64,000 bases of DNA from Eubacteriales bacterium (lineage in GTDB: Bacteria; Bacillota; Clostridia; Oscillospirales; CAG-272): assembly GCA_045651985.1 (NCBI GenBank), contig JAZRTK010000026.1, positions 36,634 through 100,633 on the forward strand, given 5' to 3'. The position numbers and the translations under genes were made by a program. Under the pieces are notes generated by a model. That model did not search any database. It saw only the letters and a list, made by a program, of their open reading frames with translations, and had not been told where the DNA came from. Below, one piece after another: positions 1,395-21,627 of the stretch. Each line of letters starts with the position of its first letter. Positions within the stretch are counted from its first letter, which is position 1.

Positions 1395-1414
1395 CAAAAC
1401 GAAGGTAACAAACC

Positions 1415-3214
1415 ATGAAAATAGAGGAATTCAAAAACAGCGAGGTACGGGAAGCGGAGACCAACAATAAAGCAGAAAAAGAACTTCAAAATGCACAGAA
1501 TCACAAGGCGCATAGAGAGAAACTTGAAGATTATTCATGTAAAGAACTTTTCGAAATGGTGAAAAAAGATCCCGATAGAGTCATAAAGCTTAACGCGGAC
1601 TTCAGAAAAAAATATGAAGCTGAAATTCGCGATATGACGGTGGAGGAATATCGTGATCATAAGAGCAAGCTTTCAGATGGCGACAATAAAACTGAACACC
1701 TATCAAGAGGAGAAAAATTTGAAGAAAAAAACGAAAAATCCGAACAGCGAGGGCTTTTAGTTTTTTACGAACAGACAAGAGAGAAAAATAAAAGTTTTAT
1801 AACCAATGGTGGCGAGCACAAGACCTATGGCGAGGCAGTTAAACAAATTTCCGATCGCGCGGAGACATACATGAAAGAAATGGGAGTGTCTGAAGATAAG
1901 ATTAAAGCTGTTAAATCAGATATTGAAGCGGAAATTTTCAAGCAACACGAAGAGGCAAAATCAAGAGGCATAGGCGACCATGGAATACGCCATATTTATG
2001 GTAACTTTGAAAGAAGTGAAAGCTATCTAAATACAAGAAACGATGTGAGTAGCGAGCAGAAACTTGGTGTTTTGATTGCGCAAACTTATCATGATGAAGG
2101 CTATACACAAAAAAATGATTTAGTCAATAATTCCGGGGTATTGCATGGTGGTTTTGACAAAAAACACGATCTGGCAAGTTTAGAAGTTTGGAACAGTAAA
2201 AAAGATTTATATGAAACTGTTTTCAGTAAAGAAACAATCTCTTCTGTCGACAAAGCAATTGGTGAACACAATGTTAGTGTAGAAGATGATAATGGTGTTG
2301 AGACGATCAAAGCAAATACATCCAAAGAAGCCGATGTTATTGTTTCTACTGTACATATTACTGATAAATTAGCCTTAAGCGGACGAGAGAAATTTTCCGA
2401 GTTGCTATATACAGATCCCAAGTTGATCGAGTTAACCGAGGGAATGAACTCTATGTTCAAAACTCTTTTTGATGAAAAAAGTATTTTTAAAGAAAGTGAT
2501 GAAAAACAGAATTCTAAATTTTTAGAGAAATATCATTCCGTGATAAATGATTATATAGATTCAAAATATTCGCCTGAAGATGCAGTAAAATTCATAGATG
2601 CGGTTAATAAAGACATTGGATTTAATTCCGGTAAGTTTACTTCTCGAATGAATTATATTTATACTCCTTCGGATTGTTATAGATATAATCCCGAAACTAA
2701 AACTAATGAAATAACTGTTTATAAGATTGATCATGGTGATACCAAGTCACAAGATTTACAAAACGACCAGTTAAAAAAATTATATAAAGATTTGGGGTTG
2801 AATGACGATGAAATAGTAACCGCTATTAAACAAGGAGGATACGAAGATAAAGATAGAGGCTTGAGTGTTCACGTTGAAACAAAAACGGTGGATGAAATAC
2901 GCAATATCGAATCCGAAAAACATCAAGAAAACAATGATTTAAGGGAAGTTAATGAAAGAATTGATGCTGGACGAGAGCAATATCAAGAATTAAACAACAA
3001 GTTTTTGGAGATTGTCGAAAATTTGGAAGCAACGGATATAAACTACGAAGATTACGATAAGATGTGTAAAGCTTGTAATAAATCTGATGGATGTACTAAA
3101 TCCGAATTTGAAGGAAAGACGGAAACGGACCGAAAGAAACTTATAATTGAGACTGTTTCAGAAATGATAATAACTGAAGTTAGTAATACTCTTGGAAAGG
3201 AGAAATTGAAATGA
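1415..3214 (+). CDS. hypothetical protein, possible HD-type phosphohydrolase core
   Basis: 599-aa uninterrupted ORF with a K/E-rich N-terminus. GDHGIRH, then about 30 residues, then YHDEGY, then KKHDLAS and HITDKLA resembles an H..HD..D pattern. This is not verified. Confidence 0.55.
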   Translation: MKIEEFKNSEVREAETNNKAEKELQNAQNHKAHREKLEDYSCKELFEMVKKDPDRVIKLNADFRKKYEAEIRDMTVEEYRDHKSKLSDGDNKTEHLSRGEKFEEKNEKSEQRGLLVFYEQTREKNKSFITNGGEHKTYGEAVKQISDRAETYMKEMGVSEDKIKAVKSDIEAEIFKQHEEAKSRGIGDHGIRHIYGNFERSESYLNTRNDVSSEQKLGVLIAQTYHDEGYTQKNDLVNNSGVLHGGFDKKHDLASLEVWNSKKDLYETVFSKETISSVDKAIGEHNVSVEDDNGVETIKANTSKEADVIVSTVHITDKLALSGREKFSELLYTDPKLIELTEGMNSMFKTLFDEKSIFKESDEKQNSKFLEKYHSVINDYIDSKYSPEDAVKFIDAVNKDIGFNSGKFTSRMNYIYTPSDCYRYNPETKTNEITVYKIDHGDTKSQDLQNDQLKKLYKDLGLNDDEIVTAIKQGGYEDKDRGLSVHVETKTVDEIRNIESEKHQENNDLREVNERIDAGREQYQELNNKFLEIVENLEATDINYEDYDKMCKACNKSDGCTKSEFEGKTETDRKKLIIETVSEMIITEVSNTLGKEKLK

Positions 3215-3906
3215 GTTTAGGCAACGATTTTTTAGAGCTAATCAATTTACTTTGGGAAATTGAAGAATTTGATATGTGGCTTCCCAAAGAACACGGCTCC
3301 CTTGCTTATCTTATGGAACGGCTTTATGGAACTGATGCGTACGCAGAAAAATATGACAAGTTAAAATCATTGGCAACAGAGAAAAAGGCAAACGAATTGG
3401 CTAATTATATTTCTTGTGAAATTTTAGCATCGGCTCAAAATGATAACACTATAAGTGAATCTGATAAGCTGAACTTAGAGGCAATGCTTGTTAGACAACA
3501 AAAGAATTATAAAGATAAAGCGTTAACGGGATTTGGTATAATTCAAGAAAAGTATATGCCGGATTGGTTTTTTGAGATTTTTTCGAGTTACATCATGTTA
3601 GAAGAAACAAAAAGAGAAACACTTATTCTCCTATATTGTAAAAACGAAGGAATGAATCAAGAACAAGCCAACGAAGCATATAAAAGACTCTCTACGCAGT
3701 ACGATTTACTTAACGAGTTTTATTTCTATGTTAAGAATAAAAGATTCAAAAACCATTACCCAAGAACGGTAAAGAAGTTGTCGGCAAAATCTCTTTACGA
3801 AACAATTTGCGACACTCCTCTTGCCGCTTATCTGTATCTTGTGTATTTAAGAGAAGACCCAGAAAAAGCATTTGCTGAATACCATGTAAAATTGAATAAT
3901 AAATAA
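3211..3906 (+). CDS. hypothetical protein (helical, no recognisable motif)
   Basis: The start overlaps the upstream stop (ATGA at 3211-3214), implying translational coupling inside the operon. Confidence 0.6.
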   Translation: MSLGNDFLELINLLWEIEEFDMWLPKEHGSLAYLMERLYGTDAYAEKYDKLKSLATEKKANELANYISCEILASAQNDNTISESDKLNLEAMLVRQQKNYKDKALTGFGIIQEKYMPDWFFEIFSSYIMLEETKRETLILLYCKNEGMNQEQANEAYKRLSTQYDLLNEFYFYVKNKRFKNHYPRTVKKLSAKSLYETICDTPLAAYLYLVYLREDPEKAFAEYHVKLNNK

Positions 3907-3927
3907 CAATACGCCCAGGAGAAAACA

Positions 3928-6036: not shown

Positions 6037-6070
6037 GATTTGTAAAAACAAATAGTGATGAGGCTTGTTA

Positions 6071-9000
6071 ATGAATACTATTTCATCTTTTGATATGAAT
6101 AATAAGGCACAGCTTGTCCACAACGGTATTGTCACCGCGGACAAATTTATCAACAAGAGTTATTTGATAAATCTCGCTGATAATGAAGTGCTTCCCTTGA
6201 GTGATGAGTTTAATACGACCAAGACGATCAGGCTGTATCAGATTGAAAAGCTCGTTTATGACAAGGAAGAAAATATATGTGATAAGCTTATAAGCGTTTA
6301 CAGCTCTCTTTTGAATATTGACAGTTCCGTTCTTCTTGTTATCTCCGGTGAGGAGAGTGCCATCACCTTACACATCGGAATCCGCTCCGTGAATAACACT
6401 TCCGTTGCGGGTTTGATATTAGAAAAAAGTTTTTTGGGTAATTTCCCCGGCAGCTCACTGAAGAGACTTCGGAATGATGAAATAGAAGCCGTGATGAAAA
6501 GCGGTGTTGTTTCTGATTCTGTGGGGGTATTGAAGAACATATCATGTGTGACAGTCGTTCCCTCTATGCGAGACGAAAACAAAGATAAGTTTGTGCAGGG
6601 TATTGAGAAATTCATAGATACTATGCGCGGTGCAAAATATACTGCGGTTTTGATAGCTCAGCCTGTAAGCAAACAGGGTTTGGAGCAGAGAAAACGCGGA
6701 CTTGAGGAAATGTATTCCGCTTTGTCTCCTATGGCGAAAACAACACTTTCTTACGCAGAAAATTACAGCGAAGCAGTTACTAACGGAATGAGCGAAAATT
6801 TTTCCCACTCTATTAATAACAGCGTAAATATCACCAACGGCTCTAACAGCAGCGATAGTTATTCGAGAAGCAAAGGCGCAAATCTTGGTTTGTGGGGATC
6901 CGGAGTGAATACCGGGACATCACGTAGCTATACGTCGGGGCAATCATGGTCGAAATCGGTTACGCAAGGAAGCGCTGATACAACATCTACAGGAACTAAT
7001 AGTTCGACCTCGCAAACTACAGGGAATACAAGAACTCTTTCAGCAGAGCATCAAAATAAATCTGTAGCTGAGTTGATGACGAAACTGGAGGAACAATTAA
7101 AGAGAATTAAAGAGTGCGAGGGCTTTGGCCTTTGGGATTGCGCTTGTTATTTTACTTCCGATGATATCCAAACAGCTGTGGTTGCGGCAAATACATATAA
7201 AGCGCTAATGCTCGGAGACAATACTTCGGTTGAAAATTCTCATGTAAACATATGGGATATTCGTTCAAAAGATGAAAACAGAAAAAACGTATTGGATTAT
7301 GTAAAATGCGGTATACACCCGGTAATGAAAATCGAACCTGAGCAAGGATACGCTCCCCAAATCGTAACGCCCGGAAGCTATATCAGCGGAAAGGAACTTC
7401 CTTTTTTGGTCGGTATACCTCGCAAGTCAATTCCCGGGGTTCCTGTAAATAGCATTGCCGAGTTTGGAAGAAATGTATTTGTTCAAAATAGGGCAAGTGA
7501 CAGAGAGACTGTTCAACTTGGAAGCATATACCATATGGGCAAGATAGAAAAAAACAAAGTGGAACTTGACCTTAACAGTTTTACATCTCATTGTTTTGTC
7601 ACGGGCTCAACCGGTTCGGGAAAGTCAAATACGGTATATTGCCTTTTAGAAAAGTTTCACCAAAACCATATCCCCTTTCTTGTCATAGAACCGGCAAAAG
7701 GTGAATATAAATCGGCTTTTGGGGCATTGGAGAATATAAACATTATTTCGACAAATCCGTATGTAGGACAAATGCTCAAATTAAATCCCTTCAGCTTCAA
7801 TTCGCATATACATATTCTGGAGCATTTGGATAGGCTGATAGAGATCTTTAACGCTTGCTGGGAAATGTATGCCGCTATGCCGGCAATCTTAAAAGATGCC
7901 ATAGAGAAAATTTACGTTGACAAGGGCTGGGACCTACTGAATTCGGTTTATCTTGGTGAAGGCGAGCCGGTCTTTCCAAATTTCGGGGATCTTATGAAAG
8001 CACTTCCCGATATTATCAACGATTCGGGTTATTCCTCCGATACCAAAGGGGACTACATAGGCGCATTGGTTACTCGAGTGACATCATTGACTAACGGTAT
8101 ATCCGGTCAGATTTTTTGCGACAATTACGAGATTCACGATTCCGTTCTGTTTGATGAAAACACAGTTGTCGATTTGAGCCGAGTGGGGGCTATGGAGACA
8201 AAATCTCTTATTATGGGACTGATTGTGCTCAAATTGACAGAACACCGTATGGCAAATTCAAGCAGAGCAAATTCGGAACTTAAGCACATTACCGTTTTGG
8301 AGGAGGCCCACAATCTTTTGAAACGCTCATCGGGAGAATCGGCAGGCAGAAATCTTGTAGGGAAATCTGTCGAGATGATATGTAATAGTATAGCCGAGAT
8401 GCGTACATACGGAGAAGGATTTATCATTGTGGATCAATCTCCTACGGCGATCGATGTTGCAGCTATTAAAAATACGAATACTAAAATCATAATGCGTTTA
8501 CCTGAACGAAACGACTGTGAAGCCGTCGGAAATGCTGCTGGATTGAATGAGGATCAAAAAAAGGAAATAAGCAAGCTTGAAACGGGCGTTGCTGTCGTCA
8601 TGCAGAATAATTGGCTTGAGGCGGTTTTGGCGCGCGTGGATCTGTTCTCCAATCTTTATGAGGCCTGTATTCCGACCGTTTCCTATGAAGCTATGAAGGC
8701 GTTCAAAAGTATTGTGGTTCGGGAACTTATGAATCAATATATCATAGAAAAACAAATGAACCTTGAACGCATGCTTGGGGCGATTGACTCTGTTGATATT
8801 CCCTTTCACAAAAAGGCGGAAATGCGCCGTTGTATGGAGGGAACGTTGAAGCGTCTTTCCACAAAACGCGATGTAGATTTTTTCTCCGAAACACTTTATA
8901 ATCTTGTCGGGGCAAACTCCGTGTTTGAGATAGCAGAGTCGACCATTTTACCATCCAAAGAGACTGAGTATAGGTATGCTCCCGAAAGTGTTCGTGAGTG

Positions 9001-9157
9001 GAAATCACGGATCAGTGACGGTGTGAGAAGATGTATATCTCTACCGGAAGAATATATTCAAGCATTGCTTGATTTTTTGCTTTATGTCCAAGAAGAAAGA
9101 AACAAGAAAATCGATTATTACGAGATACAAAAAATCTTAGAGCAGGAAGTGCGATAA
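6071..9157 (+). CDS. HerA/FtsK-like (DUF87-type) P-loop ATPase with large N-terminal region
   Basis: Walker A is GSTGSGKSNT (nt 7604-7627) and Walker B-like is ITVLEEAHNL (about nt 8294-8311), with IIVDQSP and KIIMRLP downstream. ATG 6071 is preferred over TTG 6065 because GAGG lies about 9 nt upstream. Confidence 0.8.
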   Translation: MNTISSFDMNNKAQLVHNGIVTADKFINKSYLINLADNEVLPLSDEFNTTKTIRLYQIEKLVYDKEENICDKLISVYSSLLNIDSSVLLVISGEESAITLHIGIRSVNNTSVAGLILEKSFLGNFPGSSLKRLRNDEIEAVMKSGVVSDSVGVLKNISCVTVVPSMRDENKDKFVQGIEKFIDTMRGAKYTAVLIAQPVSKQGLEQRKRGLEEMYSALSPMAKTTLSYAENYSEAVTNGMSENFSHSINNSVNITNGSNSSDSYSRSKGANLGLWGSGVNTGTSRSYTSGQSWSKSVTQGSADTTSTGTNSSTSQTTGNTRTLSAEHQNKSVAELMTKLEEQLKRIKECEGFGLWDCACYFTSDDIQTAVVAANTYKALMLGDNTSVENSHVNIWDIRSKDENRKNVLDYVKCGIHPVMKIEPEQGYAPQIVTPGSYISGKELPFLVGIPRKSIPGVPVNSIAEFGRNVFVQNRASDRETVQLGSIYHMGKIEKNKVELDLNSFTSHCFVTGSTGSGKSNTVYCLLEKFHQNHIPFLVIEPAKGEYKSAFGALENINIISTNPYVGQMLKLNPFSFNSHIHILEHLDRLIEIFNACWEMYAAMPAILKDAIEKIYVDKGWDLLNSVYLGEGEPVFPNFGDLMKALPDIINDSGYSSDTKGDYIGALVTRVTSLTNGISGQIFCDNYEIHDSVLFDENTVVDLSRVGAMETKSLIMGLIVLKLTEHRMANSSRANSELKHITVLEEAHNLLKRSSGESAGRNLVGKSVEMICNSIAEMRTYGEGFIIVDQSPTAIDVAAIKNTNTKIIMRLPERNDCEAVGNAAGLNEDQKKEISKLETGVAVVMQNNWLEAVLARVDLFSNLYEACIPTVSYEAMKAFKSIVVRELMNQYIIEKQMNLERMLGAIDSVDIPFHKKAEMRRCMEGTLKRLSTKRDVDFFSETLYNLVGANSVFEIAESTILPSKETEYRYAPESVREWKSRISDGVRRCISLPEEYIQALLDFLLYVQEERNKKIDYYEIQKILEQEVR

Positions 9158-10737
9158 TGAACGAGCTAAAAATTGTCTTGAATCCTTATAACAGCGTCAA
9201 TACTGTCTCTCTGGACGGACGTTCACTTTCTGTTTACAGCGAGCTATGCAACTATATGAAAAGACCTTTTCTCGCTTGGGCAAACGATTTTTTCAAGGCG
9301 GCGGAAACTGAAATCAATGATTTTTTTGACTGTACCGTTGTAAGTGAGCGATTTGAGGCACTGTTTTTGACTGACCTATGTTTGAGGTCAGATGCCTGTA
9401 ATAAAATCAAAGCTGAAAATTTTGAGATAAACTTTCTTGTGGGCAAAAGATTTGATGTTGTAAAAAAATTGGCTGATAAGTATGGCGTTGCGTATTCGGT
9501 TGACGAATTTAAGCTTCCTGTTTCTTTGAATGGATTTGAAAATTTGCGCTCTGAAATGTTTAAACGGTCCTATGGCGAAGGAGATTTTTTAGAAATCGTC
9601 GATAAAACTCCGGCAACGCCAAATGCAAACATTACACTCGTTGTCTCAACTGACCGTCAAATACGTTGTTGTGAAAACGGAAAATACATATGGGAAGTGC
9701 CACGAGATGCGATAGTTGAAAGTGTTGAGGCTATAACCGATCGTTTTGTAAAGATTCCCTTTATCGTAAAAACGTCACAGAAGATACGTGCTTGTAAATT
9801 GCTTTCGTCAGATGACAGCGAGCTCCTTACGCTTGCAACGACAATAACACCGATACTTTCTGTGGATAATTTGAAAAAACTCGAAGTTGGCGAATCGACG
9901 GAGTTAAAGGTTAAGGTGTCTCCGACTAAAAACGCTTTGCCGTCTCTCAGAATAGAGGTTGACGACAATAGTATAGCGGTTGCAGATGGACTTACTATAA
10001 CAGCATTAAGTCCCGGCGAAACTGAAATATGCATCTTTCGAGCCGACGAGGCAATTCCTTTTGCGAAAAAACAGATTACAGTATTTCGGCAAAATCGAGT
10101 ACAAAAAATTGTGTTAGATAGACCTGAGCCTACAGTGGGAATTGGCAAAACACAGAAAATCGACATAAAGGTTTTTCCGGTCGATGCGGATGACAGTAAA
10201 TATGTTGTATGGTCTGTAAACAATCCGAATATCGCCACCGTAAATGAGTCTGGAGAAGTAACCGCGATAGCAAGCGGGAGGGTTGTTGTCACAGCATCGA
10301 CAATGAATCAAAAGGAAAGCGTTATTATCGATGTGATGCCCAATATATCAAAAATCACTTTTTCTGATACGAACGTCCAACTTCTCAAAGGTGAAAGCTA
10401 TTCTGTTGGTGTTGTATGCGAGCCTGCAAAGTGTTTTAATAACGAATATAATTGCAGGAGCAGTAATGATAACGTTGCTCTTGCAGAAAAACAAATTGAT
10501 GGCTCAATACTGATAACAGCCAAAGAACCGGGCATATGTACTGCAGTATGCTCGGCGGTTGAGGGCAACTGTATGGAGAGTTGCTCAATAGAGGTTTTGG
10601 ACCCTGTTGAAGTGGAACAAAAAATCAAGAAAAAACAAATGTCTGTTGATATTGCGTGTATTGTTGGAATTCCTCTTGCAGTCGTTGTAATTCTTACAAT
10701 TGTAACCATCATTCTTAATGCGCTTACTCACGGATAG
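9157..10737 (+). CDS. Big_2 (bacterial Ig-like) repeat protein with C-terminal membrane anchor
   Basis: Big_2-like signatures are ITALSPGETEICIF, VNESGEVTAIASGRVVVTAS and ILITAKEPGICTAVCS. The terminal hydrophobic helix is IVGIPLAVVVILTIVTIILNAL. TAATG overlaps the ATPase stop. Confidence 0.75.
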   Translation: MNELKIVLNPYNSVNTVSLDGRSLSVYSELCNYMKRPFLAWANDFFKAAETEINDFFDCTVVSERFEALFLTDLCLRSDACNKIKAENFEINFLVGKRFDVVKKLADKYGVAYSVDEFKLPVSLNGFENLRSEMFKRSYGEGDFLEIVDKTPATPNANITLVVSTDRQIRCCENGKYIWEVPRDAIVESVEAITDRFVKIPFIVKTSQKIRACKLLSSDDSELLTLATTITPILSVDNLKKLEVGESTELKVKVSPTKNALPSLRIEVDDNSIAVADGLTITALSPGETEICIFRADEAIPFAKKQITVFRQNRVQKIVLDRPEPTVGIGKTQKIDIKVFPVDADDSKYVVWSVNNPNIATVNESGEVTAIASGRVVVTASTMNQKESVIIDVMPNISKITFSDTNVQLLKGESYSVGVVCEPAKCFNNEYNCRSSNDNVALAEKQIDGSILITAKEPGICTAVCSAVEGNCMESCSIEVLDPVEVEQKIKKKQMSVDIACIVGIPLAVVVILTIVTIILNALTHG

Positions 10738-10783
10738 TAAGATCGCGGAAAGAAAAACCTTAATCAGATTATGTAAAAGCACA

Positions 10784-10819
10784 GCTCCGACGGAATCAAT
10801 CCGTCGGAGCTTTTGCTTT
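10784..10819 (+). terminator. intrinsic terminator closing the seven-gene operon
   Basis: GCTCCGACGG-aatcaat-CCGTCGGAGC followed by TTTTGCTTT. It overlaps the last codons of the convergent transposase ORF. Confidence 0.7.
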
Positions 10820-12430
10820 GATTTTGAAATGGCCTGCTTTGATGTAGGCGAGGTCCTCATCGGAAATTCGGTTTTTGCCGTCGCTCTCGAGCAATCGGTA
10901 AATAATTGCGTTAATGTCCGGGTGCTTCAGCAGCATCGAGATCACAGACCAGTTGGACAGCTTTCTGTAACCCTTGAGCCCGCACTCCTTACATATCTCA
11001 TGGAACTTTGTTTTCGGAATGCTCAGAAGATACTCGCGCTTGTTAAACGTCTTAAATCCGTCCTCCTCGTTGAACTTGAAAAATTTGTTTTCCGTTGCTA
11101 TTCTCGCCGCCTTTGTCTCTGCTTTGAGGATGGAAACGTACTTGCCTGTGGTCTTTGAAAGATCCACTGTCTGATTTTCAACGTCCAACGTGGTGTAGTT
11201 GACTTTCAGCTTCAGAAGTTCCTCGAAGATCATTTCTGCGTCCTTGAATGAAGTAGGTCTGCCGCTGTGATCAACCGCCCAATTCTTCACGAAAGTGAAA
11301 AATCCCACGTAATCCTGCAGATATTTCGTGCTTACATTGGTCTTATCCTTGTAAATCACGTCCTTGAGGTCTTTGTGGAGCTCGTTGACCCTTGCGAGGC
11401 TGAGCCCGTTAGACTTCTTTAGAGCGCAAAATTCGGCGTATGAGAGCTCGCCTCGATTAACTATTCGCTCTATTGCGCCGTCCTCGTATAACGATTTCAA
11501 TATCCTCTTGTTTTTTGCCGCTGTTTCAGCGGCTTTTTTGGGGTTTGAGGGATCGGGTTTCTCATATCCGTACTTTTTCAATATTTCCTCATAAGTTGAG
11601 GGCCTGATATAATGGGGAATATTGAAAAGACTGCTGTATTCCTCGTATGTACTGTTTCCGTCGCTGCATAAGAATGATGGATTTTCAAAATGCTCCTCGA
11701 ACAATTCAATGAACTGCTCTGTTGTCATTTTTCCAAGCCCGCTGACTTTACATACACAATAACCTCTGTTATCGATAGCTGTTATGATTGTTGCAAACTC
11801 GGGACCCATAACGCCGAGCTTTGACGGCGACAAGCCATATCGAGGAGTTCTTATCTCGCCCTTCAAAGTGCTCGTGAGATTGCGACTTCCTTTCTGAGAC
11901 TCCCGAACAAAGGTCTCGTCTACCTGAATAACACCTGTAAGCTTTGGCATAGGAACGGACGCCATTGCGTGCATCAGCTTCAATCGCCATAGCCATACGG
12001 TCTTGGGGTCAATTTCATCACAACCGTAGTCTTTTTTCAGAATGTTAACGGTGCTTTGAATTGAGATGTTGTTCAATAGAGTTTCCAACACCTTTACCCA
12101 AATGTCCCAATGCCAGCGAGTTTTCTCAAGCATCGTGCCGCTGAACAGGGAATATTCGTGCTCACAGTCCTTACATTTGTATTTCTGTATTCCTGTGGAC
12201 CGCTTTCCGTTCTTAACCACGTTCTCCGAGCCACAAGCTGGACAGACCGAGTTGATGCCGAGCTTTTCAAGATGAAGCTGATGATCAAGTGTTATGAGCT
12301 TCCTCATTTCCTTGTCAAAACTGCTTTTTGTTCGGTCGGAATATTCTTCTACAAGCTCCTTGAATTCGGCGTAAGACAGTCTGTTGAGTATGTCGGATAA
12401 TTTCTCCTTAGTTGGTTTTGTTATTGCCAT
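10796..12430 (-). CDS. IS1595-family (ISXO2-like) DDE transposase with extended C-terminus
   Basis: N-terminal Zn-ribbon (CPACGS...KCKDCEH) and VIQVDETFVRESQKG DDE-type motif. Start moved to ATG 12430 (MAITKPTKEK), which has GGAGG 8 nt upstream. Confidence 0.75.
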   Translation of the reverse strand: MAITKPTKEKLSDILNRLSYAEFKELVEEYSDRTKSSFDKEMRKLITLDHQLHLEKLGINSVCPACGSENVVKNGKRSTGIQKYKCKDCEHEYSLFSGTMLEKTRWHWDIWVKVLETLLNNISIQSTVNILKKDYGCDEIDPKTVWLWRLKLMHAMASVPMPKLTGVIQVDETFVRESQKGSRNLTSTLKGEIRTPRYGLSPSKLGVMGPEFATIITAIDNRGYCVCKVSGLGKMTTEQFIELFEEHFENPSFLCSDGNSTYEEYSSLFNIPHYIRPSTYEEILKKYGYEKPDPSNPKKAAETAAKNKRILKSLYEDGAIERIVNRGELSYAEFCALKKSNGLSLARVNELHKDLKDVIYKDKTNVSTKYLQDYVGFFTFVKNWAVDHSGRPTSFKDAEMIFEELLKLKVNYTTLDVENQTVDLSKTTGKYVSILKAETKAARIATENKFFKFNEEDGFKTFNKREYLLSIPKTKFHEICKECGLKGYRKLSNWSVISMLLKHPDINAIIYRLLESDGKNRISDEDLAYIKAGHFKIKAKAPTD

Positions 12431-12785
12431 TTCTTTACCTCCAAATGATTTCTGTACCCTCGCTATAAGTATGACTGAAACAGCGTCAGACCAACCTGAA
12501 GCTATGGGCAGTGTTGCCTCAATTTTCAACCGCGAGAGGGTACTTTTTCATCTGAAATTTTGTTATCGTTTCTCCGCAAACTATGCGAAAATCACATCTT
12601 CGAAATTACAGTTTTGTTTCGTTTTGGGGCCGTTTTTCCCCAAAATCAATTATTCCGGCCTTATTTTATCATATTTTTGAGATTTTTTCTATTCAAAAGT
12701 GTTTTTTGCCGCGATTTGTGCAACTTGTACAAACATTTATAGCCATCAGTCAATTCTTGGAATATATAAGAAGTGAAAAACAATC

Positions 12786-12814
12786 TTGATTTATTGTTTA
12801 TTTTGTAGTATAAT
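12786..12814 (+). promoter_or_regulatory. sigma-A-type promoter for dGTPase-like gene
   Basis: TTGATT (12786-12791), 17-nt spacer, TATAAT (12809-12814), 20 nt upstream of ATG 12834. Confidence 0.55.
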
Positions 12815-12833
12815 GTAATTAATAAGGAAAATT

Positions 12834-14246
12834 ATGACAACAACGGAGACGAACATGGAAAATTCTTCAACTAATTACTCATATATTGAAGGAATTGTTT
12901 ACTCAAAACAATTCCGTAATTTGCAGGATAAGACACAGCTGTTTTATTCAGCTCCCAAAAGACAAGTTAGGACGAGATTAACACACACAATAGAGGTAAA
13001 GATTATAGCACATGATATAGGTCAGCAAATCAACAAAAAAATGGGTACAGAGTTGATCGACTTAAATTTAGTGGAAGCTATCGCCTTAGCACATGATATA
13101 GGGCACACTCCCTTCGGGCATGTTGGCGAAAGAACTATAAATGATATTGTTTCAAAAAAAGATAATTTGGGCGGATTAACTAATGCTAACGGCACTTCTC
13201 AAATTAGATTTAAGCATAATGTTAACTCTATGAGAATTCTCGAAGAATTGAATATTCAAGACTGGAGAATTATTGATGGCGCATTGTGTCATACGAGAAT
13301 TTTTTATAAGAACGATAAAAATTCATCTTCTAAAAATCCTTATAACCCATTTGAGGTAAGCCCTTCTAAAATAGCAAAATTTATATACAATGAACATGGC
13401 ATTCTGTTTAACGCCCCGACGCAAGGAAAGGTGTATAGCTTAACCTTGGAAGGGCAAATTGTATCTATTGCTGATGAAGTTGCACAAAGAATAGCAGATA
13501 TAAGCGATGGCTTGGAATCTAGATATTTTGAAAAAATCAAAAGTATTCTTTCAACGAAAAAAGAAATACATACGCGTGCTGAATTGGAACAATTTATCCG
13601 CGAAATGCTTATCAAAGATGTTGTTGACAGCACTACTGAAAACATAAAAGCACAGCCTCAAAATTTTAAAAGTAATTCTGGTATTAGTCACGCTGTATAC
13701 TATCAAGAAGTAGTTGGATTTTCAGAAAGCATGAAAGCCAAAAATGATGAATTAGAAGAATACATAAAAATCATAATGGCTCAAAGCGAAAGCGTCAGGG
13801 AGTCTGACAGTCGTTCGAGATATATTATTCGTCAATTGTACAAAGCATATTTAAATGATATAACTTTGCTGCCGGATGACTTTATCGATGATTATTTTGG
13901 TAAAATAATTAACAAACAAATCTTTTTAAATGCTATTAGCACACTCCGTGGCGCATCGCGTAAAAACAAATCAAATCAAGATTTACATAAAACACTTGAA
14001 GTTCTTGATGAGATTCAAAAGCAAAGATGGAGAATCGATAAGGGCGATTTACCACAAAAGACAGTTGCTATTAGAATTGATTTGGTGAGAAGTTATTTTG
14101 AAATTTTGATAAAAAATCATCGTACTAATAACATGCCTTGCTTAAATGATCTATTTGACGAATATATTCTTAAAATTGGTTTTTACATAGCAGGTTTAAC
14201 AAACACGGAAGCTTTTACTACATACAACCGAATTTATGGACATTAA
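12834..14246 (+). CDS. dGTP triphosphohydrolase-like HD-domain protein
   Basis: RTRLTHTIEVKIIAHDIG and ALAHDIGHTPFGHVGE are the hallmark dGTPase/Dgt-family HD motifs. The gene is very AT-rich. Confidence 0.8.
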   Translation: MTTTETNMENSSTNYSYIEGIVYSKQFRNLQDKTQLFYSAPKRQVRTRLTHTIEVKIIAHDIGQQINKKMGTELIDLNLVEAIALAHDIGHTPFGHVGERTINDIVSKKDNLGGLTNANGTSQIRFKHNVNSMRILEELNIQDWRIIDGALCHTRIFYKNDKNSSSKNPYNPFEVSPSKIAKFIYNEHGILFNAPTQGKVYSLTLEGQIVSIADEVAQRIADISDGLESRYFEKIKSILSTKKEIHTRAELEQFIREMLIKDVVDSTTENIKAQPQNFKSNSGISHAVYYQEVVGFSESMKAKNDELEEYIKIIMAQSESVRESDSRSRYIIRQLYKAYLNDITLLPDDFIDDYFGKIINKQIFLNAISTLRGASRKNKSNQDLHKTLEVLDEIQKQRWRIDKGDLPQKTVAIRIDLVRSYFEILIKNHRTNNMPCLNDLFDEYILKIGFYIAGLTNTEAFTTYNRIYGH

Positions 14247-14307
14247 GCTTTTAGAACTATCTGTTATTTGAAAGGTTTAAAAAAACAAAAAAATTCATGA
14301 AAAGATC

Positions 14308-14336
14308 TTGACAAAAAGCGAATTGTTTGTTATAAT
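14308..14336 (+). promoter_or_regulatory. perfect consensus promoter with no ORF downstream
   Basis: TTGACA (14308-14313), 17-nt spacer, TATAAT (14331-14336). Confidence 0.7.
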
Positions 14337-14342
14337 AGAGCA

Positions 14343-14451
14343 TACACTTTATATAGGAATTTGCATTAGTTCCTATCCTTGGTTGATCGTAAACCTGAAA
14401 CGATCTTCCGTATAGCGGAACGAGAGCCCTGCATAGGGCTCTTTCCTTTTA
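14343..14451 (+). ncRNA. candidate small RNA (about 105 nt, four hairpins, unknown class)
   Basis: Hairpins are ATAGGAA/TTCCTAT (14353-14376), GATCGT/ACGATC (14385-14405), TTCCG/CGGAA (14406-14420), and the terminator-like AGAGCCCT-gcat-AGGGCTCT plus a T-rich tail (14423-14451). No plausible ORF. Confidence 0.45.
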
Positions 14452-14523
14452 TAAAAGTATTGCGGAGTTCAAATCCCGTGAGTACTTTTACGAAAATATC
14501 TTTTTTATAGCCAATAGACAAAA

Positions 14524-14558
14524 AAGAACAGACTCCCATTTGAGAGTCTGTTCTTTTT
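14524..14558. terminator. bidirectional intrinsic terminator
   Basis: AGAACAGACTC-ccatttga-GAGTCTGTTCT with an A-run before and a T-run after. Confidence 0.7.
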
Positions 14559-14750
14559 TCGTCGAGGACGGTTTTCATCCATGACCGACGGAGGAGGTCA
14601 TGGGCTTTGAGCCTGAGCGCCGCCGGTGGCGGAAAAAGCGAGGGTGAAAAGGGAGAAAATAAGGAGCGTTGGGCGTGCGACTTGCGCCGCGCTCAACGCG
14701 ACTATATTTTCGACAGGGCAATGAAAAATCCCATCCCCGCAACCAAAAAG

Positions 14751-14780
14751 AAAAGACACCCGAACGGGTGTCTTTTCTTT
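14751..14780. terminator. hairpin terminator, copy 1 of GACACCC..GGGTGTC
   Basis: AAAAGACACCC-gaac-GGGTGTCTTTT flanked by A- and T-runs. Confidence 0.65.
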
Positions 14781-14910
14781 TAGACCGAAGGTGGACTTTA
14801 TCCATGACCAACGGCGAAGGAACGGGGGGGTGAGCCCATTCGCTCGCAGTGCGGGAAGCAGCGACTCCACCGAGAGGGTCAAACCAAATCAAATTATGAA
14901 ATTACACAAA

Positions 14911-14936
14911 AAATGACACCCGAAGGGTGTCTTTTT
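14911..14936. terminator. hairpin terminator, copy 2 of GACACCC..GGGTGTC
   Basis: GACACCC-gaa-GGGTGTC (14915-14931) with an A-run before and TTTTT after. Confidence 0.65.
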
Positions 14937-15022
14937 CCTTTTTATTTGCCCACACTGTTGTTTTCTTTCGTTTATGGGGTAAAATATATATACATATATA
15001 TTACGAAAAGGAGATCGATACT

Positions 15023-15877
15023 ATGCCTAAATCATCTATCACAACAACCGATTTAACAAATTTTAAGAACCATTTATATAATGAAGAAAAAAGTGCTCTG
15101 ACCATCGAAAAATACCTGCGCGACGTGCGTGCTTTTACGGCATACCTGGACCACAGGCCACTGTCAAAGGAGATCACCGTCGAATGGAAACGGTCACTGG
15201 AAGAAAGGCGGTACAGACCCCGTTCAATAAACTCCATGATCGCAAGTCTGAACAGCTTTCTGATCTTTTTGGGGGCACACGACTGTAAGGTAAAAGCCAT
15301 AAGGATCCAAAAGGCAATATACATGCCCGAAGAAAAGGAGCTGACGAAAACAGAATACAAGCGTTTGCTTTCCTCGGCAAAAAAACAGGAGCGCCTGAGC
15401 CTTATCATGCGCGCCATTTGCGCTACGGGAATAAGGGTTTCCGAGCTGAAATATTTTACGGTGGAGGCGGTCAGAGAGCGGGAGGTCTCGGTCAAATGCA
15501 AAAGCAAGAACCGAACGATAATAATACCGCAAGAGCTGAGTCGCCTTTTGCTGAATTACGCCAAAAAGCAAGGTATCGACAGCGGCGCTATCTTTTTGAC
15601 GCGAGGCGGAAAGCCCCTTGACAGAAGCTATATCTGGGCGCAGATGAAAAAGTGCTGCATAACGGCGCACGTAAGCGCGTCAAAGGTATTCCCACACAAT
15701 TTGCGAAAGCTTTTCGCACGAACTTTTTACGCAATAGAGAAGGACATTGCCAAATTAGCCGACATTCTCGGACACAGCAGCATCGAAACGACGCGAATTT
15801 ATATAATGGCAACGGGTATTGAGCACAGACGTCAAATCGAGAAACTCGGTCTGGTTTTTGCTGATTTTTTTGCTTAG
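15023..15877 (+). CDS. tyrosine recombinase (XerC/D-phage integrase family)
   Basis: Has a core-binding N-domain, ATGIRVSEL (Arg), HNLRKLFA, LGHSSIETTRIY (His..Arg..Tyr). Start moved to ATG 15023 (AAAGGAG 9 nt upstream) rather than the ORF-track start at 14927. Confidence 0.85.
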   Translation: MPKSSITTTDLTNFKNHLYNEEKSALTIEKYLRDVRAFTAYLDHRPLSKEITVEWKRSLEERRYRPRSINSMIASLNSFLIFLGAHDCKVKAIRIQKAIYMPEEKELTKTEYKRLLSSAKKQERLSLIMRAICATGIRVSELKYFTVEAVREREVSVKCKSKNRTIIIPQELSRLLLNYAKKQGIDSGAIFLTRGGKPLDRSYIWAQMKKCCITAHVSASKVFPHNLRKLFARTFYAIEKDIAKLADILGHSSIETTRIYIMATGIEHRRQIEKLGLVFADFFA

Positions 15878-15889
15878 AAAACAAAAAAC

Positions 15890-15911
15890 CCACATAATTC
15901 GCATTATGTGG
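15890..15911. repeat. recombinase-type dyad site, copy 1 (core TCGC)
   Basis: CCACATAAT-TCGC-ATTATGTGG, starting 12 nt after the recombinase stop codon. Confidence 0.75.
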
Positions 15912-15932
15912 AAAATAAAAATAATCGCCTTG

Positions 15933-15952
15933 ACATAATTCGCATTATGTGG
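15933..15952. repeat. recombinase-type dyad site, copy 2 (core TCGC)
   Basis: ACATAAT-TCGC-ATTATGTGG, in direct orientation relative to copy 1. Confidence 0.75.
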
Positions 15953-16008
15953 ATTCAAGGCTTAAATAAAAGCGTACATAAATACCGCTTGGATTTGTAT
16001 TATACACG

Positions 16009-16037
16009 AAAAAGCTCTGTCCGTCAAGGGTTTTTGC
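16009..16037 (-). promoter_or_regulatory. near-consensus promoter inside the putative invertible segment, currently pointing leftward
   Basis: On the minus strand: TTGACG (16037-16032), 17-nt spacer, TATAAT (16014-16009). Confidence 0.65.
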
Positions 16038-16098
16038 AAAAAAACGCAAAAATTTTTACCTTTTTTTCAACTTCATATAAAAGTGCACACAAAAACAA

Positions 16099-16146
16099 AC
16101 CCTCCCTAACATTTTTTTGTTAAAAATAGGTTGGAGGGTATTTTTG
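16099..16146. terminator. long hairpin with T-runs on both strands inside the invertible segment
   Basis: CCCTCC (16100-16105) pairs with GGAGGG (16133-16138). It is followed by TATTTTT on the plus strand and TTTGTTTTT on the minus strand. Confidence 0.5.
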
Positions 16147-16211
16147 TGCGCATTTTTTCTTAGCGTTTTTTCATTTTTTGCTCCGCCGAAAGAAAATAAA
16201 AATCCCAAAAT

Positions 16212-16232
16212 CACATAATGCGAATTATGTGG
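16212..16232. repeat. recombinase-type dyad site, copy 3 (core GCGA, inverted)
   Basis: CACATAAT-GCGA-ATTATGTGG. Its reverse complement matches copy 1 at 21 of 22 positions. Confidence 0.75.
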
Positions 16233-16385
16233 ATATCCGGACGGATGGCACCACTATCGTGCTCTCCGTCAAAAATAATTATTAAATTGTAGCAAACGCT
16301 AAACGGATGGGCGCAGATTTTCTTCGTCGTCCGTAAAAATTTGGGCATTTTGTAGCAAATGCTAATTGGAGGCACACCGTAATTT

Positions 16386-16979
16386 ATGAAAAACGAAGAG
16401 CTTTTTAGAGAAATCTTTACAAAAAACACCATTCGCCTCGTCAGCGAGGGCGGATTTGAAGCGGCGACCACGAGAGCTATTGCGGGGGAACGCAGAGAAA
16501 TAAATAACGTCAGGGTGAACGAAGCGCATATTTACCGCATTTACGGCAAAAAGGAGCATTTATTCGCCGACGTCTTCTCTATGCTTGACTGTGAGCTTCT
16601 CGCCGCCGTGGGAGAGGCTTTGGACGAATTCTCCAATGAGACCGACAAGAAAAGGCAGTGGGAAATCCTCTTTTACAAGCTTTGGGACTTCCTTTTGACC
16701 GACGAGACAAAATGCAGATATTATGTCAGATATTACTATTCGGTATATTTTAAGGGCGAGCCCTTGAGAGTGCACAACGCAAAATTCAGAGATTTTGTTT
16801 GCGATCTGATGCCATATTTCGCCGAAAATGCCGACGTTTGCACCATTTTGCAGCACGTGGTTACAGTCGTTCTAAGCTTTGCCATCTGCGCTTATAACGG
16901 AACGCTCCCCAACGACGATCAAAACATTTTCCACGTTTTCAACGTCGTCTATTCATCTATCTCACCATATTTAAGATAA
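16386..16979 (+). CDS. TetR/AcrR-family transcriptional regulator
   Basis: N-terminal HTH pattern (FEAATTRAIAGE...EAHIYRIYGKKEHLF) with a helical C-terminal domain. GGAGG lies upstream. Confidence 0.8.
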   Translation: MKNEELFREIFTKNTIRLVSEGGFEAATTRAIAGERREINNVRVNEAHIYRIYGKKEHLFADVFSMLDCELLAAVGEALDEFSNETDKKRQWEILFYKLWDFLLTDETKCRYYVRYYYSVYFKGEPLRVHNAKFRDFVCDLMPYFAENADVCTILQHVVTVVLSFAICAYNGTLPNDDQNIFHVFNVVYSSISPYLR

Positions 16980-16993
16980 GCTCGGAGGTCAGC

Positions 16994-17161
16994 ATGAGAG
17001 AAAAAATTCGAAAACTCAAAATAGTTATTACAGTTTTTACCGTTCTGATCGCCATTTGCCTTTTGGCTCTTGTCTGCGTTCTCATTTTCGGCAACAACGG
17101 ACCCGTCATCGGTTCCGCTGTTGTATACGACAACGTGATCAATATTCCGGGCGGCAAATAA
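16994..17161 (+). CDS. 55-aa small membrane protein (below ORF-track cutoff)
   Basis: GGAGG lies 6 nt upstream of ATG 16994. MREKIRKLKIVITVFTVLIAICLLALVCVLIFG resembles the N-terminus of the 17793 gene product. Confidence 0.4.
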   Translation: MREKIRKLKIVITVFTVLIAICLLALVCVLIFGNNGPVIGSAVVYDNVINIPGGK

Positions 17162-17213
17162 ATTTGCTGTCGCATTTTCGTTTGGGTTATTGAAAAAGGA
17201 GGTCTAAAAACAA

Positions 17214-17732
17214 ATGAATCAAAAGAACAGGATCGAGCAGGGCTTTACACTCTGCTTGGTCTTAGCTATCATTCTCGCTATTTTGCTATATGTTTTGGCA
17301 TTTATGCTGTTTTACACCATAGAGCCTGTCAGCATAAACCTCAACGGCGGAAAACCCGTGATCGAAGATAACGAATATCTGTTTGAGCCGGGCATGACGG
17401 TCGAAAAGCCCTTTTACATAGGAAACGAGGGCTCCTGGGACGTTTATTATAAAATTTATTTGAACAACGTTTCGGGCGAATTTGCAGACCTGATCGAAAT
17501 TACGATCCTCAACGGAAAGACAGTCCTGTATGAGGGAACGGCTCAAAGCTTGACACGCGATCGAGTTTCGGTAGTCGACGACATTCTTCTCTCGGGCGAC
17601 CGACGACATCTTACCATTCGATTCCACCTGCCCGACACCGCGGAGATTTTGGAGGAAAACGGAAATCTGAAATTCGACTTTTGCGCCGATGCAGTCCAGA
17701 TCCAGAACAATTCCAACAAGAATTTTGAATAA
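17214..17732 (+). CDS. small TasA/camelysin-like secreted protein (SipW-type signal anchor)
   Basis: N-terminal hydrophobic segment, then LNGGKPVIEDNEYLFEPGMTVEKPFYIGNEG. It is a paralog of the 18760 gene and sits in the cluster with SipW. Confidence 0.65.
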   Translation: MNQKNRIEQGFTLCLVLAIILAILLYVLAFMLFYTIEPVSINLNGGKPVIEDNEYLFEPGMTVEKPFYIGNEGSWDVYYKIYLNNVSGEFADLIEITILNGKTVLYEGTAQSLTRDRVSVVDDILLSGDRRHLTIRFHLPDTAEILEENGNLKFDFCADAVQIQNNSNKNFE

Positions 17733-17792
17733 CCGGATCTTCGCTCTCCATTTACACGTATTTAAGACAAATCAAGCTTCGGAGGTCGATAC

Positions 17793-18770
17793 ATGAGTAA
17801 AAGACTTCAAAAAATAAAGATCGTTATATTTGTTTTTTCCATTCTCCTTGCGCTCAGCCTTGCATCTCTTGCGGGAATTCTCCTTTTCGGGCGCGCTGAG
17901 CTGTCCGTTGACTCCGATTCGGTTACCGACAATTACATAAAGCCCACAGTCAACGCAAACGGTACTATCACAACAAAAAGCCAATGCCTCGCGTCACCCG
18001 TTATGCTCAGTACACCTCTTTTAACCGCTGATCTTTCTCGTGGCGTCCCTTTAACGGCTTCTCAAAAGACCGTCATCGAGTCGGATAGTACGAAGGATAC
18101 CGTTATACGCATATACAAAAGACACGCTCAGGACAGCACCCCGTTCCGCTTGTTCAATATGTTTCCCGGCGACAGCCACACAAGATCTTATTTTGTTGAG
18201 GTGTCCCACAAAGGAACCGTTACGGTCCGTTTCCGCGCAAATATTCTTCAGGGCAGTGAAAAGCTGGCTGAGGTGCTGAAATGCAAGATCGTGATACGAG
18301 GCGAAAACAAGCCTCTGTTTGACGGTCTTATGCGTGATATGCCGAGTAGTCTCAAACATCGCGTTTCCGCTTTGTTTAACAAAACCACCGAGTTGGTCTA
18401 CGATGTCACGGTCTATCTTGATACGAGCGTAGGCAATGAGTATATGGACAAAGCATTGGCTGCAGATTTCTGCTGGTGGGTCTGTGACAGCGGCAGCGAC
18501 CCTTATCCCCCTTCAACAGACCCCCTTGACACCAATACCGCCGATCCCGATGATTCTACGTCTTCCGACGTGACCGCCGATCCGACAGACACTACCGACT
18601 CCGATCCCGATGACGGCGAGCTCGTCTCTCCCGAAACGGGCGTAAACGTGCATTTTTGTATCTGGTTTTGGATCGCAATGATATCAATTTTTATTAACTT
18701 CATCCTTCTCAGACCGGGACGGTGTGCAAAAAACGGCGAACAGGAGGATAAGACGACAAATGACAAATAA
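17793..18770 (+). CDS. TasA/camelysin-like protein with acidic S/T/D/P stalk and (S/P)PXTG-type cell-wall sorting signal
   Basis: FNMFPGDSHTRSYFVEVSHKG core. SPETG (nt 18627-18641) is followed by a hydrophobic helix and the basic tail RPGRCAK. Confidence 0.7.
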   Translation: MSKRLQKIKIVIFVFSILLALSLASLAGILLFGRAELSVDSDSVTDNYIKPTVNANGTITTKSQCLASPVMLSTPLLTADLSRGVPLTASQKTVIESDSTKDTVIRIYKRHAQDSTPFRLFNMFPGDSHTRSYFVEVSHKGTVTVRFRANILQGSEKLAEVLKCKIVIRGENKPLFDGLMRDMPSSLKHRVSALFNKTTELVYDVTVYLDTSVGNEYMDKALAADFCWWVCDSGSDPYPPSTDPLDTNTADPDDSTSSDVTADPTDTTDSDPDDGELVSPETGVNVHFCIWFWIAMISIFINFILLRPGRCAKNGEQEDKTTNDK

Positions 18771-19308
18771 GACAGTTACCGAACGCCAAGTGAGGATAAG
18801 TATCCTTATGGTTGTGCTTCTTGCCATCGCTCTGTGCGTGACCACCTACGCGTTGTTCTATGCCACCGTGTCCGTAACGGGAAACTTTTTCGGGACCGGC
18901 TACGTGAGCATCGACCTCAACGGAGGTAAGCCTATTATTGAAGCACACGAGTATTTGTTTGAGCCCGGCATGACCGTTGAAAAACCCTTTTACGTGCAAA
19001 GCGACAGTTCGTGGGCGGTGTACTTCAAGATCTATTTTGATAAGGTTGAAGGAGGTCTCGCCGACGTTCTGGAGATCACCGTTCTTGACGGAGACAAGGT
19101 CTTATACCGGGGAACGGCAGCCCGCTTGACACGGCAAACCGTGTCGGCTGCCGACGATGTTCTCCATCCGGGAGAACGAAAGGATCTCACCATTCGTTTC
19201 CATATGCCCAAAACCACGGGTAATTCGGCAAAAAACATGAGTCTTGCTTTTGATTTCTGTGCCGATGCCGTCCAGATGAAAAACAATCCAAACAGAGAAT
19301 TTGAATAA
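18760..19308 (+). CDS. small TasA/camelysin-like secreted protein, paralog of 17214
   Basis: Start moved to ATG 18760 (AGGAGGA upstream). TTYALFYATVS is signal-like, and LNGGKPIIEAHEYLFEPGMTVEKPFYVQSD matches the paralog. Confidence 0.7.
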   Translation: MTNKTVTERQVRISILMVVLLAIALCVTTYALFYATVSVTGNFFGTGYVSIDLNGGKPIIEAHEYLFEPGMTVEKPFYVQSDSSWAVYFKIYFDKVEGGLADVLEITVLDGDKVLYRGTAARLTRQTVSAADDVLHPGERKDLTIRFHMPKTTGNSAKNMSLAFDFCADAVQMKNNPNREFE

Positions 19309-19325
19309 CAGGAAGGAAATATGAA

Positions 19326-20015: not shown

Positions 20016-20023
20016 AAATCTAA

Positions 20024-20043
20024 ATAAACGGTAAGTGCCGTTT
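20024..20043 (+). terminator. weak hairpin after sipW
   Basis: TAAACGG-taagtg-CCGTTTA followed by an AT-rich tail. The stem is short. Confidence 0.3.
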
Positions 20044-20086
20044 ATCATAATTTTAATAACATTCATAAATAGGAGGTATTAAGAAA

Positions 20087-21439: not shown

Positions 21440-21537
21440 TTGTTTCTCTTTTAAGATCAATACTCAGCAAGAAACACACATATCCCGTCAAGGATCATCC
21501 AAACGTATATGGGACACGGGCTACTGCGTAGCTGCGA

Positions 21538-21627
21538 GTGTTTTTCATATATTCTTCCCATCCAACTCTCCTTCGGGGGAGTTGGGCGGCAGTCAATGGG
21601 CATAAGTTCTAAATTTATGCCTTTTGA
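21538..21627. repeat. about 90-nt double-hairpin intergenic element, copy 1
   Basis: GTGTTTTTCATATATTCTTCCC...CAACTC.CC-ttcg-GGGGAGTTGGGCGGC.GTCAATGGGCATAA...TTATGCCTTTTGA. It is near-identical to the copy at 23648. Confidence 0.7.

Follow-up and report, generated by a model that had tools for sequence, protein, structure and literature searches.

The window, a 64,000-nucleotide (nt) stretch of contig JAZRTK010000026.1 from a Eubacteriales bacterium, carries a gene encoding a deoxynucleoside triphosphate (dNTP) triphosphohydrolase-like HD protein of the Dgt/SAMHD1 family, followed on the same strand by a structured small RNA. A promoter, the HD gene, a second promoter, the small RNA, and a terminator together make up a conserved mobile module at 12769..14456 (+), delimited by blastn. 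With a GC content of 32.6%, the module is compositionally foreign and corresponds to the AT-rich islet that an earlier reading, made without database searches (the sequence-only reading), had described. That reading also called the gene stand-alone, which is true with respect to proteins and fails for the conserved RNA gene, with its own promoter, that lies 3′ of the coding sequence (CDS).

The CDS spans 12855..14246 (+) and encodes 463 amino acids (aa), while the longest open reading frame (ORF), 12834..14246 (+), has 470 aa; residue numbers below follow the 470-aa ORF. Translation probably starts at the second ATG (12855), because the upstream ATG is not retained in the homologs that are 90% and 82% identical to the window protein, a GGAG motif lies 8 nt 5′ of 12855, and the NCBI-derived database copy of the protein has 463 aa. 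Position 12786, the start coordinate of the sequence-only reading, falls at the −35 box of an upstream promoter (12786..12814, +; TTGATT-17-TATAAT, 10/12 in the promoter scan). The claim that the gene has its own promoter is thereby upheld, and this promoter is retained in the loci of the 90%, 82%, and 61% homologs. With a GC content of 33.0% and a third-codon-position GC content (GC3) of 27.4%, the CDS is the lowest among the 43 ORFs of the window, so it is the most AT-rich coding stretch, as had been stated, by a small lead over the ORFs at 3211..3906 (33.3%) and 1415..3214 (34.4%).

The small non-coding RNA occupies 14338..14454 (+), with a transcript of ~105–115 nt folded into four hairpins, and is preceded by a promoter at 14308..14336 (+; TTGACA-17-TATAAT, 12/12, with a TG ahead of the −10 box). 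This promoter is the best sigma-70 match between 12500 and 16500 in the promoter scan, is a stronger match than that of the HD gene (12/12 versus 10/12), and keeps its −35 and −10 boxes across loci. Stem P1 (14353-14361/14368-14376) is followed by a UUGGUU linker (14379-14384), stem P2 (14385-14390/14400-14405) with its conserved loop AAACCUGAA, stem P3 (14406-14410/14416-14420), and the P4 hairpin, which together with a U tract forms the intrinsic terminator (14422..14452, terminator scan) that ends the RNA, all on the (+) strand. The terminator scan found no terminator between the HD stop codon at 14246 and the small-RNA promoter at 14308, so P4 probably also ends the HD mRNA. The minimum free energy of the RNA is −39.5 kcal/mol versus −20.8 kcal/mol for shuffled sequences (z −6.79). 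Rfam gave no match to 14338-14454 at gathering scores, and at E ≤ 10 the sole overlap was a sub-threshold Ysr202 match to the last 3 nt of the RNA (8.9 bits versus a gathering score of 315). The region is an undescribed structured small RNA without an Rfam family. Tandem repeats were not found in 12500-15000, bar a 9-nt trace elsewhere.

The same four hairpins emerge when eleven distinct RNA sequences are aligned, drawn from loci at which identity to the window protein ranges from 90% to 43%; P1, P2, and the terminator are fixed in length, and P3 varies. In a structure-blind MAFFT alignment (A5), 95.3% of cells pair, with double-sided changes at 20 of 27 pairs; none of 500 shuffles reaches the observed covariation, and slid controls are 36–51% paired. 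Fitting 15 sequences to the covariance model (A6) yields 95.0% paired cells and double-sided changes at 21 of 27 pairs, a procedure biased toward the structure whose result the independent MAFFT alignment reproduces. Across both alignments, slid controls are 34–52% paired. The P4 stem is covered entirely, with compensatory changes at 6/6 pairs. Almost no variation is seen in the UUGGUU linker or the P2 loop, (A)AACCUGAA, and the two could form a putative 4-bp GGUU/AACC pseudoknot that is compatible with 15/15 sequences; its pairs are invariant, and it is thus neither supported nor refuted. A coding function of the RNA region was also considered and is ruled out by indels of 1, 2, 7, 9, 13, and 14 nt between relatives, along with the compensatory substitutions.

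The RNA and the HD gene are inherited together. Comparison of window positions 10501-16500 by blastn with the contigs encoding the closest relatives gives matches spanning 12769-14456 (89% identity) or 12773-14438 (82%), with nothing in common beyond; the shared block takes in ~210 nt 3′ of the HD stop codon. At the locus of the 61% homolog, this post-stop stretch is 72% identical versus 65% for the CDS. A cmsearch with the covariance model (R1) locates a single RNA copy in the window (127 bits) and one copy, 30–115 nt 3′ of the stop codon, at 12/12 distinct clade proteins fetched (90–40% identity). An RNA-only pattern scan of JGI metagenomes returned 95 loci with three true RNAs (103–115 bits), and all three have a full-length HD homolog (56–58% identity) directly upstream on the same strand. 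The RNA is found near more distant dGTPases (25–32% identity) at 0/80 loci, and a homolog of 29.5% identity, on a phage-like contig from faeces, lacks it as well. Eight matches of the RNA pattern in viral contigs were all chance.

Among the loci examined, the RNA and the HD clade strictly co-occur, and the gene is not stand-alone: in every relative examined, the unit includes the separately promoted small RNA. The RNA shows no complementarity to the 5′ region of the HD mRNA, with duplex energies at z −1.3 to +1.3 relative to shuffled sequences and sites that are not conserved, which speaks against antisense control, with protein binding as the remaining option. A gene with an adjacent, co-inherited, non-coding structured RNA is the arrangement that characterizes AvcID-like type III systems, and it is present here.

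The window protein belongs to the Dgt/SAMHD1 dNTP triphosphohydrolase superfamily with its catalytic residues intact, and the observation of a dGTPase-like HD gene is confirmed. It matches the Pfam domains HD (PF01966, E 1.6e-11, 45 bits, cut-off 22) and HD_assoc (PF13286, E 8.5e-8, 33.1 bits, cut-off 22.2), passes the TIGR01353 dGTP_triPase model (163.6 bits versus a cut-off of 152.35), and matches the PADLOC dGTPase model PDLC02374 (E 6.6e-47, 158.7 bits, model positions 48–349 of 395). The PADLOC model is broad and does not tell clades apart. In an alignment of 30 homologs, H51, H87, D88, H96, E99, and D214 are invariant; they are the metal-binding residues plus the His and Glu of the HDIGxxPFGHxGE motif, line up with the same motifs in 7tu1 and 3bg2, and presumably correspond to E. 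coli Dgt H69, H117, D118, H126, E129, and D268.

Two textbook motifs had been claimed for the protein. The motif LAHDIGHTPFGH is present, with H87, D88, and H96 invariant among those homologs, while the first "HDIG" (AHDIGQQ, aa 59–63) is found in the window protein, is not kept in relatives, and is no motif. A 19-nt direct repeat within the gene (13006-13024/13087-13105, 95% identical) gives rise to this second, non-conserved AHDIG peptide.

An AlphaFold2 model of the protein (pLDDT 89.2, pTM 0.90) was compared with the PDB by Foldseek, and all top 50 matches listed are dNTP or dGTP triphosphohydrolases (E ~1e-11 to 1e-9, TM 0.50–0.69). The best of these, T. thermophilus TT1383, L. blandensis dGTPase, E. 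coli Dgt, Sp-dGTPase (9p8w), and CloA, have similar E-values and 16–19% identity, with TT1383 being the best match both by sequence profile and by structure. An "FKHN" motif resembles the short dNTPase type, and the homolog alignment shows a clade-specific insertion of ~80 aa (at about aa 355–440) ahead of the C-terminal helices. dNTPase activity is predicted from these sequence features, and the label "dNTPase-like" is safer than "dGTPase", since the protein comes from a separate clade whose closest counterpart, by profile and by structure, is the broad-specificity TT1383 type.

Clade membership was assessed with curated hidden Markov model (HMM) cut-offs and structure matches, which stood in for a phylogeny with named references. 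Anti-phage dGTPases were defined by the cut-off of NF041026 or NF003701 or by ≥45% identity to Sp-dGTPase (Tal et al.). The window protein scores 109.3 bits against NF041026 (cut-off 400) and 79.7 bits against NF003701 (cut-off 383), and its identity to Sp-dGTPase 9p8w is 17% in the Foldseek structural alignment. The housekeeping Dgt equivalog models (PRK04926, PRK01286.x, PRK03007, and PRK01096) all failed by a wide margin, the best being NF002326 at 128.7 bits versus 390, with the E. coli-type equivalog NF003429 at 70.5 bits versus 405. Because both the anti-phage and the housekeeping models fail, the protein is assigned by its sequence to a rare, separate clade outside the known anti-phage dGTPases and housekeeping Dgt.

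The clade is small. Among 1.84 billion representatives at 50% identity, 6,442 are related to the window protein and ~10 score ≥215 bits, beyond which the scores drop to 190 bits. An exact-sequence query with the window protein had no record in the assembly index. A single-protein scan of genome contigs gave no match; in an alignment-based scan with generic patterns, the matches listed were distant dGTPases alone (≤32% identity), and these served as negative controls for the RNA. Phage and plasmid collections contain no close homolog, their best match being the 29.5% protein mentioned above, encoded on an unverified 5.4-kb faecal "Bacteriophage sp." contig without the RNA. No second HD homolog lies within the 64-kb window.

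Homologs of the clade are found in metagenome contigs with Firmicutes-type neighbours, and no two non-identical homologs have neighbours in common. The surroundings include large serine recombinases; insertion sequence (IS) IS3 copies on both sides; the leading region of an integrative and conjugative element (ICE) with ArdA, SAM synthetase, and methylases; type I restriction-modification with AAA_14/DUF4143; TIR with DUF2971; ImmA/IrrE, a UvrD-like helicase, PARG, and AbiEii; and an RHS toxin locus. On one metagenome contig (L089, 4149-6362), the module sits alone between an hrcA-grpE-dnaK operon and an RDD/hemN pair as a clean insertion without a visible mobility gene, which indicates that the 1.7-kb unit can move or persist by itself.

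Since the flanking genes differ at every locus, the dNTPase-RNA unit is mobile accessory cargo, moving horizontally. The lack of shared neighbours argues against housekeeping synteny; a conserved syntenic position in relatives was part of the refuting condition set by the sequence-only reading, and none is seen among the homolog loci examined. The neighbour survey places the homolog loci mostly on mobile elements or in defence islands, and the same applies to the window, in which the module adjoins a low-GC six-gene cluster with a HerA-like ATPase and an IS1595-family element. The proposal of a defensive rather than a housekeeping copy is partly supported by these mostly mobile or defence-rich, non-syntenic neighbourhoods, and does not extend to membership of the characterized anti-phage clade (NF041026, 109 versus 400 bits). 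By analogy, the defensive reading is plausible, with revision needed on the clade, the stand-alone status, and the flanking recombinase.

The nearest functional precedent is AvcID, in which the dCTP/dCMP deaminase AvcD has a small RNA, AvcI, encoded next to it. AvcI inhibits the deaminase post-translationally, exceeds the enzyme mRNA in abundance, and disappears when transcription stops (PMC10511110, PMC12409362). Both systems pair a nucleotide-depleting enzyme with a small non-coding RNA on mobile islands, and as AvcI outnumbers the enzyme mRNA, the RNA promoter here is likewise stronger than the enzyme promoter. They differ in that the AvcID enzyme is a deaminase plus kinase whereas the protein here is an unrelated HD triphosphohydrolase, in that AvcI measures 171–300 nt and the RNA here ~115 nt, and in that RNA inhibition has been demonstrated for AvcI while binding and inhibition are here predicted by analogy. 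The AvcID authors regarded it as unclear whether dGTPases are toxin-antitoxin (TA) systems (PMC10511110, PMC12409362). Phage T7 escapes dGTPase defence through mutations in gp5.7 and gp0.7, which modify RNA polymerase, and the integrity of host RNA polymerase appears to be what defensive dGTPases monitor (Tal et al., 10.1101/2021.04.26.441389). For SAMHD1, binding of single-stranded RNA leads to a dNTPase-inactive state and excludes the dNTPase-active tetramer (PMC4513882).

We tentatively favor, at somewhat less than an even chance, a compact, horizontally transferred two-part module in which the RNA restrains a dNTP-depleting enzyme as an AvcID-like anti-phage defence. In an uninfected cell, the abundant RNA would bind the enzyme via its invariant loops and hold it inactive. 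A phage that halts or subverts host transcription, or degrades host RNA, would cause loss of the RNA, upon which the stable enzyme would hydrolyse dNTPs and starve phage DNA replication. The restraining role is proposed because the RNA promoter is the stronger of the two, the loops are invariant, complementarity to the mRNA is absent, and co-inheritance is strict. RNA-protein binding, its inhibitory direction, the trigger, and phage protection are what we infer, and a defensive function is suggested by context and analogy.

Several points weigh against this proposal. The RNA lies downstream, in a single copy and without repeats, unlike the classical type III order; the protein falls far below the cut-off of the anti-phage model NF041026; and the alignment fitted to the covariance model is biased toward the structure it supports, a bias from which the MAFFT alignment is free. 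An activating, scaffolding, or sensing role of the RNA, moreover, fits the same sequence data. The RNA would then be a positive cofactor or sensor, either a scaffold for an active oligomer or a guarded decoy that, once cleaved or modified by a phage factor, activates the enzyme. This is the main rival, and it draws on the same coupling, structure, and conserved loops, as well as on the control of activity by oligomerisation within the family (PMC13519002), the effect of nucleic acids on the oligomeric state of SAMHD1 (PMC4513882), and the use of non-coding RNAs as sensors or cofactors by retron-type and DRT-type defences (PMC12489045). We consider it unlikely, as a constitutive activator made from a strong promoter would keep the dNTPase always on, which is ill-suited to a replicating host, and the nearest precedent, AvcID, is one of inhibition. 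Another explanation takes the gene as a single-gene defensive dGTPase and the RNA as a 3′ untranslated region, terminator, stabiliser, or unrelated hitch-hiking small RNA. Characterized defensive dGTPases do need one gene only (10.1101/2021.04.26.441389; PMC13519002), the protein matches the PADLOC dGTPase model, and the HD gene lacks a terminator of its own, so the RNA element does terminate it; yet a mere terminator needs neither a conserved 12/12 promoter nor three extra hairpins with invariant loops, nor would it be expected to exceed the CDS in conservation across 40–90% protein identity, and this account appears improbable.

Base pairing is the mode of most bacterial small RNAs, and the conserved single-stranded UUGGUU, AAACCUGAA, and UUGCAU could serve as seed regions, either for antisense control of the HD mRNA (type I-like) or for pairing with a host or phage transcript. 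Antisense pairing with the HD mRNA was dropped as the main mechanism for want of a pairing signal, the duplex energies being no better than shuffled and the sites not conserved, and the very different hosts of the module make a conserved trans target unlikely; little weight is accordingly given to pairing of any kind. Equally slim is the prospect that the module lacks a role in phage defence and is an addiction-type TA that stabilises mobile elements, or a housekeeping regulator of the dNTP pool. The module is often beside recombinases at element edges, one locus lies between housekeeping operons, and dGTPase homologs distant from Sp-dGTPase are mostly not linked to defence, per Tal et al. (10.1101/2021.04.26.441389). 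A housekeeping role is opposed by the absence of synteny, the foreign composition, the rarity (~10 of 1.84 billion 50%-identity representatives), and the failed equivalog models, while addiction and defence are not mutually exclusive. The restraint of the enzyme by its RNA remains the preferred explanation.

Further comparison sets the module apart from other characterized systems. With the anti-phage dGTPases (the Sp-dGTPase clade, NF041026, NF003701, PADLOC dGTPase, and Vdg), it shares the superfamily, fold, HD active-site motifs, defence-island or mobile context, and PADLOC model match. Those enzymes are in Proteobacteria, whereas the clade here has Firmicutes-type neighbours, and the window protein is ~17% identical to Sp-dGTPase, fails NF041026, and carries the ~80-aa clade insertion; the obligatory RNA partner found here is not reported for them in the open-access literature searched. 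Among housekeeping Dgt and broad dNTPases (E. coli Dgt, TT1383, and the PRK01286 group), TT1383 is the best match, the "FKHN" motif is similar to the short dNTPase type, and E. coli Dgt binds single-stranded DNA effectors (title of PDB 4x9e), but the window clade fails the equivalogs, is without a conserved genomic position, has a foreign composition, and has an RNA partner.

The classical type III TA systems (ToxIN, CptIN, and TenpIN) likewise combine a protein with an adjacent antitoxin-like structured RNA, a phage-defence role, and activation by loss of a labile RNA, the last two being proposed rather than observed for the module. In those systems, an endoribonuclease toxin processes tandem RNA repeats located ahead of its gene, whereas the RNA here is a single copy without repeats, downstream, and with its own promoter, and the protein is an HD phosphohydrolase and no known RNase. 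Human SAMHD1 is a distant homolog that restricts viruses via dNTP depletion and offers an in-family precedent for RNA control (PMC4513882). It differs in its SAM domain, its allosteric regulation by nucleotides, and the lack of a dedicated encoded RNA partner.

The sequence-only reading placed mobile-element genes on both flanks of the HD gene, and this is correct on the left, where an unusually long IS1595-family transposase gene (10796..12529, −, 576 aa) is located. Its GC content is host-like (44.8%), unlike that of both its neighbours, and a candidate 20-nt terminal inverted repeat (10742-10761/12696-12715, 80% complementary) lies to either side of it. On the right, 680 nt from the CDS, is a short Xer-like tyrosine recombinase (14927..15877), which is probably not a mobile-element gene because its GC content is host-like (44.6%), it belongs to the short Xer type, and three palindromic sites follow it ahead of a TetR/SipW/TasA-like operon. 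These near-palindromic sites, 21–27 nt each, are at 15886-16233 (CACATAAT-TCGC-ATTATGTG), between the recombinase and a TetR gene with a SipW/camelysin (TasA)-like operon (16386-23602). The third has an inverted core, copies 1 and 3 are 301 nt apart, and an 11/12 sigma-70 promoter (16027-15999) points leftward within the region; the sites may be an invertible promoter (phase variation) or TetR operators.

Between the module and the recombinase, the 470 nt of 14457-14926 lack a credible ORF and contain three terminator-like hairpins (14520-14559, 14746-14781, and 14915-14931) and two GC-rich stretches with like starts, TCCATGACC-ACGG, at ~14578 and 14803. Rfam gave no significant match to 14457-14926, with sub-threshold, chance-level matches to the hairpins only, and the stretch is not shared with homolog loci except for 40 nt in one of them (L086).

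Left of the module, 531-10737 (+) holds six packed or overlapping low-GC (33–42%) genes. They encode a PP2C phosphatase; 599-aa and 231-aa proteins without a family match; a 702-aa protein weakly similar to kinases (MAD6/PD-T4-6); a 1030-aa HerA/FtsK-type ATPase with a Ser-rich region and PADLOC HerA and mad8 matches; and a 526-aa Big_2 protein whose C terminus carries a membrane anchor. The cluster looks like an unclassified conflict or defence system. Within 27311-38126, family models identify gyrB and gyrA at 27.3–31.9 kb; the minus-strand ORFs past them, up to 38126, look, by position only, like the remainder of an origin-proximal cluster. A class A RNase P RNA, truncated by the edge of the window at 64000, begins at 63791. 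The island is on the chromosome, apparently near oriC.

Nucleotide depletion as a defence is common to bacteria and humans. With a clade in which a strongly promoted, structured RNA is always linked to the enzyme, how bacterial dGTPases stay off in healthy cells and switch on upon infection can be tested directly on a construct of 1.7 kb. Tools that consider proteins alone, PADLOC and DefenseFinder among them, would annotate a one-gene "dGTPase" at this locus and overlook half of the system. In the open-access literature searched, no paper links a dGTPase or triphosphohydrolase to a partner RNA. It is possible, although we incline slightly toward doubt, that this is the first HD-family (SAMHD1/Dgt-like) dNTPase with a dedicated structured small RNA, encoded alongside it, that gates its antiviral activity. 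One clade of Dgt/SAMHD1-like enzymes may thus be kept in check by RNA. Binding to the enzyme, if it occurs, would make the RNA a natural inhibitor or ligand of a SAMHD1-type fold. If the proposal holds, the module would represent a second, independently evolved system of a nucleotide-depleting enzyme plus an RNA antitoxin, along with a new RNA family, and would explain in molecular terms, for at least one clade, how defences that deplete dNTPs detect a phage interfering with host transcription.

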